A stretch of 37,523 nt of DNA. It comes from Candidatus Adlerbacteria bacterium. Lineage in GTDB: Bacteria > Patescibacteriota > Minisyncoccia > Phycocordibacterales > SBAW01. The notes under the pieces are model-generated. The model searched no databases. It saw only the letters and a list, made by a program, of their open reading frames with translations, and was not told the origin of the DNA. The DNA is taken from positions 317,276 to 354,798 of the forward strand of contig DAIDHJ010000001.1 in assembly GCA_027451965.1 (NCBI GenBank), written 5' to 3'. How positions within the stretch are numbered: the first letter of the stretch is position 1; each line of letters begins with the position of its first letter. A program made the position numbers and the translations under genes. Of the stretch, positions 3 through 15,778 are shown piece after piece.

Positions 3-1388
3 GAAGCGGAAAAGGAAGATGGAGACAAGAAAGCAAAAACGCGTATCAAGGTGATTGAGAAGGAAATTGCCGATCTGAAAGAAAAGACCAGTGATCTTGA
101 ATTGCGCTGGAAGAATGAACGACAAATTCTCCAAGACATAAAAAGTATTAAGAAAGAACTGGAAATACTTCGGCTTGAGGCTGATTCTGTCGAAGCTGCA
201 GTTGATCTTTCTCGTGCAGCAGAAATTCGCTATGGAGAAATTCCTACTCTTGAGAAAGAGCTCGATCAGAAGCAAAAGAAACTCAAGAAGCTGCAAACTT
301 CTCGTCGATTGCTCAAAGAAGAAATTACGGAGAACGATATTGCTGCGGTAGTCTCTACCTGGACCGGTATCCCGGTATCACGCATGCTGGAAGAAGAGGC
401 TGAAAAACTCTCTCGCATTGAATCGGAACTTGAATCGCGTGTCGTGGGACAACATGAGGCAGTGCAAAAAGTAGCCGATGCAGTGAAGCGATCCCGTGCG
501 GGTATTGCTGATCCGAATCGACCAATCGCATCCTTTATGTTCTTGGGACCGACTGGAGTGGGTAAGACGGAACTTACCAAGGCGCTCGCACAATTCATGT
601 TCAACGATGAAAAAGCACTTATTCGCGTTGATATGTCCGAATACATGGAGAAACATTCTGTTTCCAAGATCATCGGAGCGCCTCCGGGATATGTGGGACA
701 TGAAGAAGGAGGAGCACTCACTGAACTGGTGCGGCACCGACCCTATGCAGTGCTTCTCTTTGATGAGATTGAGAAAGCGCATCCGGAGATCTTCAATATT
801 CTCCTGCAGGTGCTTGATAACGGCTATCTTACCGATGCAAAGGGTCGCAAGGTGAACTTCCGCAACACTATCATCATCATGACATCCAATATCGGCGCCC
901 AGTACATCGACAAGATGGAACAGATCGGCTTTGCGATGAACAGCAGTGATGTACAGAATTATCGGCTTGCAAAGGAAAAAGTAGAATCATCCCTGAAAGA
1001 TTACTTCCGTCCGGAATTCCTCAACCGTCTCGATGAGATCATTATTTTCAACATCCTTTCACCGGAGGCAGTCAAAGAGATTGTCGGTATCCAGGTACAG
1101 GAAGTCATTGAACGGCTTGCCGGCAAAAACATCACCCTTACTATTGCTCCTGCGGTGTATGAATATCTCGCCAAAGAAGGATATAACCCGCATTACGGTG
1201 CTCGACCGCTTCGTCGGCTCATTCAAGACAAGATTCTTACCAAGGTAGCGAATTTGATGGTATCGCGCGGTGTGCTCTCAGGCGGCACCGTATTGGTAGA
1301 TATAAAAGGAGACGAATTTACTTTCGACGTAAAGAAAACCGGAAAAGGAAAGACTACTTCTATTCCGCCTGCATTGCAGACGATATAA
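3..1388 (+). CDS. clpB: ATP-dependent chaperone ClpB, C-terminal part (5' end lies outside the window)
   Basis: Frame is open from position 3. Coiled-coil M-domain (RAAEIRYG), NBD2 Walker A GPTGVGKT, DMSEYMEKHSVSKIIGAPPGYVG, Walker B LLFDEIEKAH, FRPEFLNRLD, GARPLRR. Confidence 0.95.
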   Translation, partial: EAEKEDGDKKAKTRIKVIEKEIADLKEKTSDLELRWKNERQILQDIKSIKKELEILRLEADSVEAAVDLSRAAEIRYGEIPTLEKELDQKQKKLKKLQTSRRLLKEEITENDIAAVVSTWTGIPVSRMLEEEAEKLSRIESELESRVVGQHEAVQKVADAVKRSRAGIADPNRPIASFMFLGPTGVGKTELTKALAQFMFNDEKALIRVDMSEYMEKHSVSKIIGAPPGYVGHEEGGALTELVRHRPYAVLLFDEIEKAHPEIFNILLQVLDNGYLTDAKGRKVNFRNTIIIMTSNIGAQYIDKMEQIGFAMNSSDVQNYRLAKEKVESSLKDYFRPEFLNRLDEIIIFNILSPEAVKEIVGIQVQEVIERLAGKNITLTIAPAVYEYLAKEGYNPHYGARPLRRLIQDKILTKVANLMVSRGVLSGGTVLVDIKGDEFTFDVKKTGKGKTTSIPPALQTI

Positions 1389-1394
1389 CGAAAC

Positions 1395-1481
1395 TGGTGC
1401 GCCGGGAGGGATTCGAACCCCCGTAGCCGCAAGGGCGTTTGGTTTACAGCCAAATGCAATTGACCACTCTGCCACCGACGC
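1395..1481 (-). tRNA. tRNA-Tyr(GTA), CCA encoded
   Basis: Reverse complement folds into a cloverleaf: acceptor GCGTCGG/CCGGCGC, anticodon arm TTTGG-CT GTA AA-CCAAA, long variable arm, GGTTCGAATCC, ACCA end. Confidence 0.97.
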
Positions 1482-3559: not shown

Positions 3560-3618
3560 CTAGAAAATATGGCTTAGAATTGCGCTATTTGTACAAGTAC
3601 GATATAGTGCTTCTTGTT

Positions 3619-3777
3619 ATGTCACAAGATCGCCTCATTAAACTAGCCTGCGGCAAGTGCAAGCGCATCAACTATTGGTCTTCTAAGAATAAGAAGAAGG
3701 TTGAACGTAAGATTGAGCTTAAAAAGTGGTGCAAATGGTGCCGCGCACAGACCGTGCACAAGGAGGCCAAAAAATAA
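3619..3777 (+). CDS. rpmG: 50S ribosomal protein L33 (zinc-ribbon C+ form)
   Basis: MSQDRLIKLACGKCKRINYWSSKNKKKVERKIELKKWCKWCRAQTVHKEAKK; two CxxC motifs; followed by tRNA-Trp. Confidence 0.95.
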   Translation: MSQDRLIKLACGKCKRINYWSSKNKKKVERKIELKKWCKWCRAQTVHKEAKK

Positions 3778-3793
3778 GGTATACTCGCCTCGA

Positions 3794-3864
3794 GGGCCTA
3801 TAGTTCAATGGTAGAATAGCGGTCTCCAAAACCGTTGATCGAGGTTCGAGTCCTCGTGGGCCCG
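3794..3864 (+). tRNA. tRNA-Trp(CCA), 3' CCA not encoded
   Basis: GGGCCTA/TGGGCCC acceptor, GCGGT-CT CCA AA-ACCGT anticodon arm, GGTTCGAGTCC. Confidence 0.96.
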
Positions 3865-3941
3865 CCCTAATTTTTACCCTATAAAATCTGAACGTTTGGA
3901 TATGGTGATGTCATAGGTATAGTAAGGTGGAAATATTCTGT

Positions 3942-4988: not shown

Positions 4989-5876
4989 TCAGACGGATAA
5001 AAATTGCTTCGCTTTTGTGAGTGCTTCAGATTTATTTTTTACCCACATAATTTCTTGATTGCGTTTGAACCAGCGCATTTGCCGTTTTGTATATTTGACA
5101 ATTGCACGTTCCAATTCTTCCATGAAGCGCTCACGAGAAAGTTTTTTTTGGAGCAACAGAGCAAGGTATGCATATTCAAGTCCTAATTCTGTCATGCGTT
5201 TGTATGAAAGCCCCTTTGCATGAAGGCGTCTTGCTTCGGAGATCATGCCTTCTTGCACTCGTTTGAGCAAACGATCGTGGATTTTTTTGCGAAGCATGTT
5301 CTCTCCAACGTGTACACCGAGCCAGAGTATCTTATATGTCTGTTTTTTCGAGGGCAGGGGCGTTTTACCGATAGCATAGGCAATCTCCAAAGCACGAATC
5401 AGGCGTCGCTTATGATCCGTTTCTATGGTTTTAGCGCGGCGTGGATCTTTCTTTTTGAGCAATGCATACAATGCGGCAGTACTTTTTTTCTCCAGTCGAG
5501 CTCGCAAGGAAGGATTGGGCGGTACTTCCGGAAAAGATATTCTTCCAAGTAGCGCATCCGCATACAATCCGGTACCGCCAACAATAATAGGAATATGTTT
5601 TCGTGCATGAATGGCATGCAGTATTGGTGTTCCTTTCTTTACATATTCGCTTACCGTAAAGCGGCGTTTGGGAGAAATAACATCAAGCAGATGGTGAGTG
5701 ACACCCTCCATTTCTTTTGGAGTAATTTTCCCGGTTCCAATCGTGAGTTCCTTGTATACCTGACGGGAATCAGCAGAAATAATTTCTCCACGGAGCTTCT
5801 TGGCTAAGTAGACGCCCAATGCGCTTTTTCCCGACGCAGTCGGTCCGACCACGGCGATAACGAACGGTGTTTCCAT
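4989..5876 (-). CDS. miaA: tRNA (adenosine(37)-N6)-dimethylallyltransferase
   Basis: METPFVIAVVGPTASGKS, IISADSRQVY, HHLLD, VGGTGLY, YTKRQMRWF. Start placed at the ATG at 5876 because the longer ORF runs through a tRNA. Confidence 0.95.
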   Translation of the reverse strand: METPFVIAVVGPTASGKSALGVYLAKKLRGEIISADSRQVYKELTIGTGKITPKEMEGVTHHLLDVISPKRRFTVSEYVKKGTPILHAIHARKHIPIIVGGTGLYADALLGRISFPEVPPNPSLRARLEKKSTAALYALLKKKDPRRAKTIETDHKRRLIRALEIAYAIGKTPLPSKKQTYKILWLGVHVGENMLRKKIHDRLLKRVQEGMISEARRLHAKGLSYKRMTELGLEYAYLALLLQKKLSRERFMEELERAIVKYTKRQMRWFKRNQEIMWVKNKSEALTKAKQFLSV

Positions 5877-5959
5877 GGTGCCGGAGGAGGGACTCGAACC
5901 CTCACCCCTTGCGAGACGCGATTTTGAGTCGCGCGCGTCTGCCATTCCGCCACTCCGGC
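5876..5959 (-). tRNA. tRNA-Leu(CAA), CCA encoded
   Basis: GCCGGAG/CTCCGGC acceptor, CGCGA-CT CAA AA-TCGCG, long variable arm, GGTTCGAGTCC, ACCA. Confidence 0.97.
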
Positions 5960-6004
5960 ATTGATACATCACAAATAGTGTGAGTGTTGTGTTAGTATAA
6001 TCGC

Positions 6005-6952
6005 ATGTCCGAGTTTTACAATAACGCTATTTTCTGGGTTGAGGTAGATAAGATAAAACCCAATCCGTTTCAGCCGCGCAAGGAATTTGACGAAGGGAAG
6101 CTGCAAGATCTTGCAAACTCTATCCGGCAGTACGGTGTCCTGCAACCGTTGGTTGTCTCACGGAAAGAAATTCAGAAAGATGATGGTGGATTGGCGGCTG
6201 AGTACGAACTGATCGCAGGAGAGCGGCGTCTGCGCGCCTCTCGGCTTGCAGGTATATCGCAGGTTCCGGTACTCATTCGAGCAGGATTCGATGACGACAA
6301 AACCAAATTAGAACTTGCCATCATTGAAAACTTGCAGCGAGAGGATCTCAATCCTATTGATCGAGCACAAGCATTTTCCCGGCTTACAGAAGAGTTTGGC
6401 TTCAAACACGTCGATATTGCCCAAAAAATAGGGAAGAGCCGGGAGTATGTATCAAATTCGCTACGCCTCCTTACCTTGCCAAAAGAAATGCAAGATGCGC
6501 TGTCTGCTGGCAGTATCAGCGAGGGACATACGCGCCCATTGCTCATGCTTTCCGATCGAGCGGAAGAACAGCAAACGCTGTTTCGTGAAATACTGCTTAA
6601 ACGACTCACGGTACGCGATTCAGAGGCAATCGCGCGTCGTATCGCAACAGACCGCATTCGGAAGAAAGAATATTTGTATGCCCCTGAAATTATCGCCATG
6701 GAAAAGGAATTGACTGAAGCGCTCGGTACGCGAGTTGCGATAGAACCTAAGGAGCGAGGAGGAAAACTCTCCATTGATTTTATGGATGAGGAAGATCTGC
6801 ATACACTGTTCCGTGCGCTCCAGGGGCGGCTTGAGCATGATCTGTCTACACCGCAAGAAGAAGCACCACAAACAGAACTGCTGGATGATCGTTCAAAAGA
6901 GGAAAAAACACTGGATGAAAATACGTTTGATCCAAAATACTTCTCGCTCTAA
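6005..6952 (+). CDS. parB: ParB/Spo0J chromosome partitioning protein
   Basis: IKPNPFQPRK, GVLQPLVV, IAGERRLRA, IENLQREDLNPI, HTH (KIGKSREYVSNSLRLL), SEGHTR. Confidence 0.95.
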   Translation: MSEFYNNAIFWVEVDKIKPNPFQPRKEFDEGKLQDLANSIRQYGVLQPLVVSRKEIQKDDGGLAAEYELIAGERRLRASRLAGISQVPVLIRAGFDDDKTKLELAIIENLQREDLNPIDRAQAFSRLTEEFGFKHVDIAQKIGKSREYVSNSLRLLTLPKEMQDALSAGSISEGHTRPLLMLSDRAEEQQTLFREILLKRLTVRDSEAIARRIATDRIRKKEYLYAPEIIAMEKELTEALGTRVAIEPKERGGKLSIDFMDEEDLHTLFRALQGRLEHDLSTPQEEAPQTELLDDRSKEEKTLDENTFDPKYFSL

Positions 6953-8478
6953 TGTTTAGTTTCTAACGCAAGACGAATATGTCTGCGCGCAAGGGTTGTT
7001 TTAGCAAAATCTAACCACTTCTGCTTTGGAGAGGCTGTTTTTTTTGTAATGATTTCGACGATATCGCCGTTATGGAGCGTGGTACTAAGCGGTACCATTT
7101 TACCGTTTACTTTAGAGGCGAATACATGATTACCTATATCTGAGTGTATAGCATAAGCAAAATCAACTGGACTAGAACTCATAGGTAAATCCACCACATC
7201 ACCCGTTGGGGTAAATACAAAGACGCGATGTGAAAAAATATCTGTTTTCAGTACTGTTTCGAGTTCTGGATCATTTATTTCTTGCGGAAGCTCAGTAAGC
7301 CATGCTGGAGCTGAGCGGGTATCATACCGATTTTTGCGTACAGATGTTGCACTACTCATCCCTCCTTTTATTTCAGGGGTTTGTTTTCTTTTCAACAAAC
7401 TTCTAATCCAATCAAAACTAGATTGTCTACCTTCCTGTCCTTTTTCTTCTGCATCTTTATACTTTACGTGTGCTGCGATACCATACTCAGCCTCCTGGTG
7501 CATTGCTTCTGTACGAATCTGTATTTCTACAATGCCACCATCTCCAGAAAATACCGTTGTATGGAGACTTCGATATCCATTTGGTTTTTTAAAGGCAATA
7601 TAATCTTTTATTTTATTTGGAAGTGGTTGCCATAGTTTATGTACTACACCGAGTACTCGGTAACAGTCTGCTATCGTAGGCACGATAATACGAATCGCGG
7701 CAACATCATGAATATTTTCAATATTATTTTCTTTGCGCTTCAGTTTTTGAGATAGACTCCATAATCCCTTAACGCGGAAATCACTATGAAACGAAGTGAT
7801 GCCGCTATCAGCCAAGCCTCGTTTTAGGGTTTTAAGCATTTTTTGTAATCGTCCCATTGTTTCTTTAGATCGTTCTCCCAGAAGCTTTTTGGTCGTTGCG
7901 TACTCTTCAGGGTAGGCATAGGCAAATGCAAGATCTTCCAATTCTCGACGGACTGTACCAATACCAAGACGGTGGGCGATTGCAGCGTATATCTCGAGTG
8001 TTTCAAGAGCAATACGTTTTCGTTTTTCAGGAGGCACGAACTGTAGTGTCTGCATATTATGCAGACGATCCATAAGTTTAATGATAAGAACGCGCGCATC
8101 CTTGCCGGTTGCCACAAGCAGTTTCCGTAGACTTTCTCTATGCCGTTCCACCCCTCGGTATTTGAGGTGTCCCAACTTCGTCACTCCTTCCACTAAGAAA
8201 CGTATTTCTTTCCCGAATTCCTTTTCGATTGTCTCTGGTTTTACTCCAACATCTTCGATTGCATCATGCAGTAAACCTGCAGCAATCGTCCGGGCGCTCA
8301 TGCCAAGGCTTGCTAGGCCTTTTGCCGTGGCAACAAGGTGTACGAGATACGGTTCTCCTGACAGTCGCTTGTGATCTTTATGTGCCTCTGCGGCAAATGC
8401 ATACGCTTTCTCTATCAGCGTGCTGTCTGCAGCGCTCGGCGCATCCATGAGATTGGTAATCTCCTTGCTATCCGACAT
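6949..8478 (-). CDS. RelA/SpoT-family (p)ppGpp hydrolase/synthetase, short form (HD + synthetase + TGS)
   Basis: R.SGEPY..H, LLHDAIED, DRLHNMQTL, KDYIA..K.NGYRSLHT, EIQIRT, TGS VFVFTPTGD..DFAYAIHSDIG; no C-terminal ACT/RRM. Confidence 0.92.
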   Translation of the reverse strand: MSDSKEITNLMDAPSAADSTLIEKAYAFAAEAHKDHKRLSGEPYLVHLVATAKGLASLGMSARTIAAGLLHDAIEDVGVKPETIEKEFGKEIRFLVEGVTKLGHLKYRGVERHRESLRKLLVATGKDARVLIIKLMDRLHNMQTLQFVPPEKRKRIALETLEIYAAIAHRLGIGTVRRELEDLAFAYAYPEEYATTKKLLGERSKETMGRLQKMLKTLKRGLADSGITSFHSDFRVKGLWSLSQKLKRKENNIENIHDVAAIRIIVPTIADCYRVLGVVHKLWQPLPNKIKDYIAFKKPNGYRSLHTTVFSGDGGIVEIQIRTEAMHQEAEYGIAAHVKYKDAEEKGQEGRQSSFDWIRSLLKRKQTPEIKGGMSSATSVRKNRYDTRSAPAWLTELPQEINDPELETVLKTDIFSHRVFVFTPTGDVVDLPMSSSPVDFAYAIHSDIGNHVFASKVNGKMVPLSTTLHNGDIVEIITKKTASPKQKWLDFAKTTLARRHIRLALETKH

Positions 8479-15632: not shown

Positions 15633-15703
15633 TGGGAGATCGTCTAATGGTAGGACAGCGGCCTTTGAAGCCGTTAATCATGGTTCGAATCCATGTCTCC
15701 CAG
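15633..15703 (+). tRNA. tRNA-Gln(TTG), 3' CCA not encoded (followed by CTA)
   Basis: TGGGAGA/TCTCCCA acceptor, GCGGC-CT TTG AA-GCCGT, CATGG-TTCGAAT-CCATG. Confidence 0.96.
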
Positions 15704-15778
15704 CTAGTATATTTACATATTAACGATACTGTTGTATAGTATTTTTAGTTACAAGTATCCCTTTGAAAGGAGGGTTTC

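Follow-up and report, generated by a model that had tools for sequence, protein, structure and literature searches.

We analyzed a window of 37,523 nucleotides (nt) from the genome of a Candidatus Adlerbacteria bacterium (contig DAIDHJ010000001.1, positions 317,276 to 354,798), in which the gene for the tRNA dimethylallyltransferase MiaA directly follows the gene for tRNA-Leu(CAA) on the minus strand. The genome containing the window, referred to below as the host genome, comprises 551,879 bases in 5 contigs, is 98.98% complete, and has 48 tRNA genes. The product of miaA (4989..5876, minus strand; 295 amino acids) matched the Pfam family IPPT (PF01715) with an expectation (E) value of 3.9e-61 and 207.2 bits, against a cut-off of 23.6, and aligned to the solved MiaA structures 2QGN (5.6e-53), 3D3Q (6.4e-46), and 2ZM5 (1.9e-31). 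Its P-loop, GPTASGKS (residues 11-18; 5823..5846, minus strand), has the family motif GPTxxGK[ST], and residues G11, T13, G16, and K17 were invariant in an alignment of 24 sequences. The tRNA-Leu(CAA) gene (5876..5959, minus strand), in which the CCA end is encoded, was found both by ARAGORN and by the Rfam tRNA model RF00005 (58.9 bits versus a gathering score of 29; 5879..5959 on the minus strand, model positions 1-71), with the Rfam match stopping at the discriminator base, A5879. It has a full cloverleaf with 7/7 pairs in the acceptor stem of 7 bp, and it is the single tRNA-Leu(CAA) gene of the genome.

At the junction (5874..5878), the minus strand reads CTCCGGC-A-CC-ATG-GAA-ACA-CCG. The discriminator A5879 is followed by C5878, C5877, and A5876, and A5876 is at once the terminal A of the tRNA CCA and the first base of the miaA ATG (5876..5874). 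A first-pass annotation of the window had described this overlap, and the sequence itself, ARAGORN, Rfam, and Pfam all confirmed it, as we also confirmed that the miaA frame stays open upstream through the entire tRNA to a GTG at 5972. The distance of 2 nt between discriminator and ATG leaves no space for a promoter, for a Shine-Dalgarno (SD) sequence, or for a terminator between the two genes.

In the tRNA, the anticodon CAA (5926..5924) is followed by A37 (5923) and A38 (5922), and the anticodon loop (C-U-C-A-A-A-A) thereby has the A36-A37-A38 signature (5922..5926, minus strand), which is the substrate determinant of MiaA in Escherichia coli. The signature occurs in 8 of the 48 tRNAs of the genome, and its presence in tRNA-Leu(CAA), as expected of a MiaA substrate, had been pointed out correctly in the first-pass annotation. 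The adjacency of an enzyme and its expected substrate could in principle reflect substrate-coupled autoregulation, in which the unprocessed tRNA would serve as a leader for miaA, and processing or translation of the mRNA would depend on binding of MiaA or on the modification state of A37. Five of the eight A36-A37-A38 tRNAs (Cys, Leu-TAA, Tyr, Trp, and Leu-CAA) lie within 12.5 kb around miaA (genome positions 310.7 to 323.2 kb), which would suit such a mechanism; however, this region was chosen after the fact, and we do not lean on it. The Tyr and Trp tRNAs are old neighbors of the rpmG/secE region in many bacteria. Most relatives have tRNA-Trp past the 3′ end of miaA but still inside the locus, which may reflect old synteny with the rpmG region; in the window, tRNA-Trp is directly preceded by an open reading frame (ORF) of 65 amino acids (3580..3777, plus strand), which, judging from its sequence, encodes a putative ribosomal protein L33 (rpmG).

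A search of 5500..6400 for cis-regulatory RNA families (T-box and others) at E values of up to 1 in Rfam did not favor autoregulation: it returned only the tRNA and two sub-threshold chance matches, one of which lies on the opposite strand of the tRNA. A joint fold of the leader, the tRNA, and the initial 46 nt of miaA recovered the cloverleaf and had a z-score of 0.03 as a whole. A predicted 7-bp hairpin in this fold (5879..5873 with 5854..5848; ACCAUGG/CCGUGGU) would cover the miaA AUG, but it is probably noise, the fold being no better than that of shuffled sequence.

Promoter-like site and start codon of miaA

A consensus scan placed a promoter-like sequence, TTGTAA-16 nt-TATACT, at 5994..6021 on the minus strand, about 35 nt before tRNA-Leu(CAA), with a predicted transcription start about 28 nt before the 5′ end of the tRNA. 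The pattern TTGNNN-16..18-TANNNT lay upstream of tRNA-Leu(CAA) in 13/13 tight Leu(CAA) junctions of the examined loci. Directly ahead of the downstream start codons (−16..−9), TANNNT was found in 0/30 tight junctions, and there was no promoter-like site inside the tRNA gene of the window, so that the independent promoter considered there by the first-pass annotation is not apparent. On the plus strand, a TATAAT ends 3 nt upstream of the parB ATG (6005) and overlaps the minus-strand TATACT (5990..6010), the parB box and the −10-like box of tRNA-Leu(CAA) forming a compact divergent promoter region. Three sets of metatranscriptome contigs yielded one 48-nt tRNA piece of 90-95% likeness, which continued into unlike sequence and was rejected as belonging to another organism.

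A second alternative of the first-pass annotation was that miaA truly starts elsewhere. We considered a GTG that forms codon 9, an ATG or GTG upstream within the tRNA, and, besides these, expression from a promoter of its own in the tRNA gene. Such starts are available, as the frame open to 5972 includes in-frame ATG and GTG codons, and the GTG of codon 9 lies 26 nt past the discriminator. A start at this GTG, however, would remove the β-strand FVIAVV that precedes the P-loop and aligns to the solved MiaA structures. With the ATG at 5876, residue 2 or 6 of MiaA aligns to residue 5 of 3D3Q and 2QGN, which indicates an N terminus of normal length. Our survey covered 61 genomes from the genus and order of the host, which was itself included; miaA was found in 58 of them, and the predicted N termini of 56 relatives were all short and of one type (M-x-K-P-K, a hydrophobic strand, GPT). 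A start inside the tRNA is unsupported because the gap lengths vary among relatives, differing modulo 3, and several relatives have in-frame stops across the tRNA, the reading frame through which varies. Together with the absence of TANNNT ahead of the start codon in the 30 tight junctions, this makes a different start or a promoter within the tRNA gene the least probable of the explanations we considered.

Apparent leaderless initiation and tight tRNA-gene junctions

To characterize start signals, 480 long ORFs of the host genome were compared with 476 internal in-frame control starts. SD-like 4-mers preceded 40/480 first start codons and 45/476 internal controls. In contrast, TANNNT starting at −15..−11 preceded 133/480 first starts versus only 23/476 controls, with a sharp mode at −12 (52/480) and the extended −10 consensus TGnTAtaaT; the box was present ahead of 75/261 operon-first-like and 46/182 closely following genes. 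As far as can be judged from sequence, this placement is a signature of transcripts that start at the start codon. In the host 16S rRNA, the 3′ tail, GGAACAATTCAATG (16S gene at contig C1 32863-34325, outside the window), lacks the CCTCC core of the anti-SD, and CCTCC was found in 0/25 tails from the host and 24 relatives (26 loci, one of them without the anchor motif). Loss of the anti-SD motif has been described for a subgroup of Parcubacteria (PMC9297842). Because there is neither an SD signal nor an anti-SD, SD-led initiation is unavailable to miaA or to any other gene of the genome. Instead, with −10 boxes about 7 nt before starts, no SD enrichment, and no anti-SD, this lineage appears to use leaderless initiation at a 5′-terminal AUG as its default. 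For ribosomal protein S1 (TIGR00717), a frame of 384 amino acids scored 142 bits, below a strict cut-off that was passed by 2/14 controls.

The junction at miaA was not the only one of its kind. In the host genome, 23 of the 48 tRNAs were followed by a same-strand ORF of at least 100 amino acids that begins no more than 150 nt past the discriminator, with gaps of 2, 2, 2, 6, and 10 nt, the next gaps being 22 nt and above; such tight junctions exceed chance. According to Pfam, the gaps of 2 nt separate tRNA-Leu(CAA) from MiaA, tRNA-Val(TAC) (contig C1 97063-97138) from a PseudoU_synth_2 (RluA-type) protein of 247 amino acids, and tRNA-Thr(CGT) (233044-233119) from an MgsA/RarA ATPase of 378 amino acids. 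tRNA-Pro(TGG) (155698-155771) precedes an S-adenosylmethionine (SAM)-dependent methyltransferase at 6 nt, and tRNA-Val(GAC) (291274-291347) precedes TsaD at 10 nt; these coordinates are likewise on contig C1, and all four junctions lie outside the window. All three 2-nt junctions read discriminator-CC-ATG-GA, with CCA and ATG overlapping by one base. As an identical layout precedes unrelated genes, the junction is not specific to miaA. An enzyme is paired with its expected substrate in just one of the five cases, Leu(CAA)/MiaA; tRNA-Val is not known to be a substrate for N6-threonylcarbamoyladenosine (t6A) formation, so that TsaD downstream of it does not constitute such a pair.

Among the 58 miaA loci, 36 had tRNA-Leu(CAA) upstream of miaA at a distance of up to 1.5 kb, on the same strand in 29 and inverted in 7; it was not in the examined locus in the other 22, four of which had less than 330 nt of upstream sequence. 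It abutted miaA in 11/58, with gaps of 2, 3, 6, 12, 2, 2, 13, 16, 11, 10, and 3 nt: in the host, in four other members of its genus, and in six genomes from other families of the order. The overlap of CCA and ATG at miaA was confined to the host genome, the other spacers of 2 to 3 nt being CA, TA, CAA, and CTT. Of the 29 relatives with the tRNA on the same strand, 18 had it more than 190 nt upstream of miaA. The first-pass annotation had proposed examining whether the zero-gap junction is conserved and had itself named variable spacing in relatives as evidence against its proposal; variable spacing is what the 58 loci displayed. In a second set of 85 miaA loci from named records, with labels including Candidatus Paceibacterota, Parcubacteria, and Patescibacteria, further abutting cases were found in Patescibacteria-labeled contigs (two at 12 nt and one at 3 nt); one abutting contig was already present in the first set, and one further case was ambiguous. 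No tRNA occurred within 1.5 kb of miaA in the 32 matches of this set that were labeled as other phyla.

The tRNA-Leu(CAA) gene flips between its divergent neighbors miaA and parB (6005..6952 in the window): in 6/7 relatives with an inverted gene, it precedes parB rather than miaA, at a distance of 17-52 nt, and the seventh sits near the end of its locus. Beyond parB, and converging on it with a 4-nt overlap, the window encodes a RelA/SpoT-type (p)ppGpp synthetase/hydrolase of 509 amino acids (HD_4, RelA_SpoT, TGS; 6949..8478, minus strand). The tRNA genes of the window are at 1395..1481 (minus strand), 3794..3866 (plus strand), 5876..5959 (minus strand), and 15633..15704.

These observations bear directly on autoregulation. 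The proximity of tRNA-Leu(CAA) to miaA in 36/58 loci, and in 0/32 matches from other phyla, would fit a functional link between the two, as would the A36-A37-A38 of the tRNA. However, synteny among kin is inherited and hence is not independent evidence, and the same junction precedes the genes for RarA and a pseudouridine synthase. Because unrelated genes share the layout, relatives do not conserve the overlap, and the tRNA is often separated from miaA or inverted, autoregulation is unsupported, and we consider it very unlikely. Of the two readings put forward in the first-pass annotation, this one gained nothing from our analysis, while the other, trimming at the discriminator that releases a near-leaderless mRNA, fits all observations.

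The other junctions differed in their distribution. tRNA-Val(TAC) abutted the pseudouridine synthase gene at 1-6 nt in 10/30 loci; in two more, it abutted another gene instead, with gaps of 1 and 4 nt. The tRNA-Thr/RarA junction was present in the host genome alone among 30 loci and was rejected as a conserved feature; such junctions therefore also arise anew. In a pooled survey of 118 loci with 155 tRNAs, 81 tRNAs had a same-strand ORF of at least 120 amino acids within 200 nt. Gaps of 1, 2, 3, and 4 nt were counted 4, 6, 4, and 5 times (19 in total), gaps of 5, 6, 7, 9, and 10 nt 2, 2, 1, 1, and 1 times, and gaps of 11-20, 21-50, 51-100, and 101-200 nt 9, 19, 10, and 17 times, although these counts overstate the case because the loci were picked via tRNA-adjacent genes of the host and include related genomes that do not count as independent. 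We therefore take the peak at 1-4 nt as an illustration of the pattern and not as a clean statistic.

The ready emergence of a junction such as tRNA-Thr/RarA is also what would be expected if the layout were a neutral by-product of genome shrinkage, with deletions having pushed genes onto tRNAs and miaA being poorly expressed or on its way to loss. The genome is indeed compact, and spacings between same-strand ORFs peak at −4, +2, and +3 nt. Against decay, miaA is intact with all family-invariant residues and is kept in 58/61 genomes, most bacteria cannot do without tsaD, which stands in the same layout, and tight junctions are maintained in different families of the order. We therefore regard a purely neutral origin as quite improbable.

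Proposed release of the tRNA 3′ end and of the miaA mRNA

The full CCA is encoded in 12 of the 48 tRNA genes of the host genome and is absent from the other 36, whereas C at position 74 is encoded in 44/48 (and in 77/81 tRNAs at the miaA loci of relatives). Encoded C74 may mark a 3′ endonuclease cut or a need of the CCA-adding enzyme, which is present in the genome (PolyA_pol, 136.8 bits). The first-pass annotation had argued that a mature tRNA and an intact miaA start are mutually exclusive products of one transcript. This would hold only if the encoded CCA had to stay; because 36/48 tRNA genes lack CCA and a CCA-adding enzyme is present, the tRNA and the miaA mRNA do not exclude one another. 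Elsewhere on contig C1 (366921-367064), tRNA-Pro(CGG) and tRNA-Ala(CGC) are parted by a single C past the discriminator, and RNase P cleavage of tRNA-Ala(CGC) would leave tRNA-Pro(CGG) ending in C74.

Taken together, the most probable explanation is that tRNA-Leu(CAA) and miaA form a co-transcript that is cut near the discriminator to give a CCA-finished tRNA and a near-leaderless miaA mRNA, in a layout that is general to this Paceibacteria-type order and not specific to miaA. We favor this reading because identical junctions occur at unrelated genes, SD and anti-SD are lacking, the genome has the promoter signature of leaderless transcripts, and a promoter-like site is found only upstream of the tRNA. 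A promoter upstream of tRNA-Leu(CAA) would produce a single tRNA-miaA transcript; RNase P would trim the 5′ side of the tRNA, and an endonuclease would cut at the discriminator or 1-2 nt past it. The CCA-adding enzyme would then complete the tRNA, for which the encoded CCA would be dispensable, and the downstream piece, beginning 0-2 nt before the AUG, would be translated as a leaderless mRNA. With a cut anywhere at positions 73-75, the tRNA could thus still be repaired and the mRNA would keep its AUG.

The sequences show how the junction is built, that it recurs, that SD and anti-SD are lacking, that promoters carry the leaderless signature, and which enzymes are encoded. As for the enzymes, the RNase P protein RnpA was present (46.1 bits), and the host genome encodes RNase Y, an RNase J of 631 amino acids, and an RNB-domain 3′ exonuclease (RNase R/II), while a search of the genome for RNase E/G found none. 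RNase J is a 5′-end-dependent exonuclease. Two further ORFs have the metallo-β-lactamase (MBL) fold, namely, a Lactamase_B_3 protein of 207 amino acids and an MBL/β-CASP/RMMBL ribonuclease of 458 amino acids (contig C1 183854-185230) that was present in 56/61 genomes of the order. The latter matched the catalytic part of the archaeal aCPSF1 model with 281.7 bits and also resembled the type VII CRISPR Cas14 model; judging by these similarities, it is a candidate RNA 3′-end or tRNA-processing nuclease. CPR (candidate phyla radiation) bacteria are described as keeping RNase J, RNase III, and PNPase (PMC12641178), and for Propionibacterium acnes, reported to be without tRNase Z, cleavage on the 3′ side of tRNAs by an unidentified endonuclease has been suggested as a possibility (PMC3848588).

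Several points weigh against the cleavage reading. Canonical RNase Z (TIGR02651) was found above cut-off in 0/61 genomes, compared with 9/14 controls, the TIGR02651 match of the host being RNase J; a simple model of RNase P plus RNase Z was dropped for this reason. RNase J could degrade a processed miaA mRNA with a 5′ monophosphate. Matches to the promoter consensus occurred at the rate expected from shuffled sequence (2 found versus 2.8 expected), five relatives have gaps of 10-16 nt, which suit neither a leaderless nor an SD-led start, and the pooled gap counts are inflated as described above. Finally, we infer from the sequence that tRNA and miaA are co-transcribed, where the transcript is cut, and that the processed RNA is translated.

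That canonical RNase Z was not found in the 61 genomes is also the starting point of a competing explanation that involves no precise cut. Here, exonucleases would form the tRNA 3′ end after a cut inside miaA that destroys the mRNA, and MiaA would be made only from the unprocessed precursor, by internal initiation at the AUG that adjoins the base of the acceptor stem. A suitable 3′ exonuclease is present in RNase R/II, and an encoded CCA could let exonucleolytic trimming stop at the mature end. However, an internal AUG beside a stable 7-bp stem would be a poor start in a lineage without SD and anti-SD and with a 5′-end-dependent default; a cut whose position is irrelevant would hardly account for the sharp concentration of gaps at 1-4 nt; and the spacers CA, TA, CAA, and CTT of relatives encode no mature CCA. 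Competition of this kind is thus unlikely.

Comparison with known systems and implications

In mitochondria, the cut at the discriminator is made by RNase Z. A close parallel to the miaA junction is the tRNA punctuation of animal mitochondria (Ojala, Montoya and Attardi 1981, cited in PMC10941002; reviewed in PMC3790967 and PMC4394434): a tRNA abuts the next start codon with no space for a promoter or ribosome binding site, its excision would yield a leaderless mRNA, and CCA is added posttranscriptionally. Unlike in mitochondria, the layout described here is found on a bacterial chromosome with many promoters, involves only 5 of the 48 tRNAs of the host, and is predicted from sequence; moreover, canonical RNase Z was not found, and RNase P includes the bacterial RnpA. 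A one-nucleotide overlap is known from the human mitochondrial tRNA-Tyr and tRNA-Cys genes, which is repaired after processing (PMC4787750). There, too, one nucleotide is common to a tRNA 3′ end and the downstream gene, and the conflict is solved by short release and enzymatic completion. At miaA, however, the downstream partner is protein coding, and the common base is A76, which is added by the CCA-adding enzyme anyway.

In E. coli, the thrU-tyrU-glyT-thrT-tufB operon provides an example of a protein gene that is transcribed from a tRNA promoter and separated by processing. Whereas tufB is preceded by a spacer with an SD, the spacer at miaA is 2 nt long and has no SD. With respect to initiation, the lineage resembles the leaderless mRNAs of Actinobacteria, Deinococcus, and archaea in having a −10 box about 7 nt before the start, no SD, and a 5′-terminal AUG; such mRNAs have been reported in P. 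acnes (PMC3848588) and in Mycobacterium tuberculosis (Cortes et al. 2013, cited in PMC12641261). Those are primary transcripts with a 5′ triphosphate, whereas the 5′ end at miaA would arise by processing, in a lineage that has lost the anti-SD. The Parcubacteria subgroup of PMC9297842 shares this loss with the order studied here; the passages of that paper on SD and anti-SD are silent on tRNA-gene junctions and leave the mode of initiation open, and the word leaderless has 0 occurrences in it.

Each element is thus already known separately: tRNA punctuation in mitochondria, leaderless mRNAs, and the loss of the anti-SD in Parcubacteria. A full-text literature search, covering neither subscription journals nor supplements, retrieved punctuation papers on mitochondria only; none described bacterial genes that abut a tRNA and become leaderless through its processing, a tRNA/miaA junction, or leaderless genes of Patescibacteria.

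More tentatively, and with somewhat less than even confidence, we suggest that the whole order of anti-SD-less Paceibacteria may use tRNA genes as start-makers, without RNase Z, a practice that would have evolved independently of mitochondria. A cut 0-2 nt past the discriminator would leave C74 for the CCA-adding enzyme and at the same time create a 5′-terminal AUG; candidates for the cutting enzyme are RNase J, RNase Y, and the CPSF73/aCPSF1-like β-CASP RNase of 458 amino acids. If the interpretation is correct, genome annotation should retain the start codons that adjoin or overlap tRNA genes in such genomes and not move them downstream. It would also point to a tRNA 3′ endonuclease other than RNase Z in this lineage, bacteria that have lost SD and anti-SD would be able to express promoterless genes via the tRNA processing site, and tRNA punctuation would extend from mitochondria to ultra-small bacteria.

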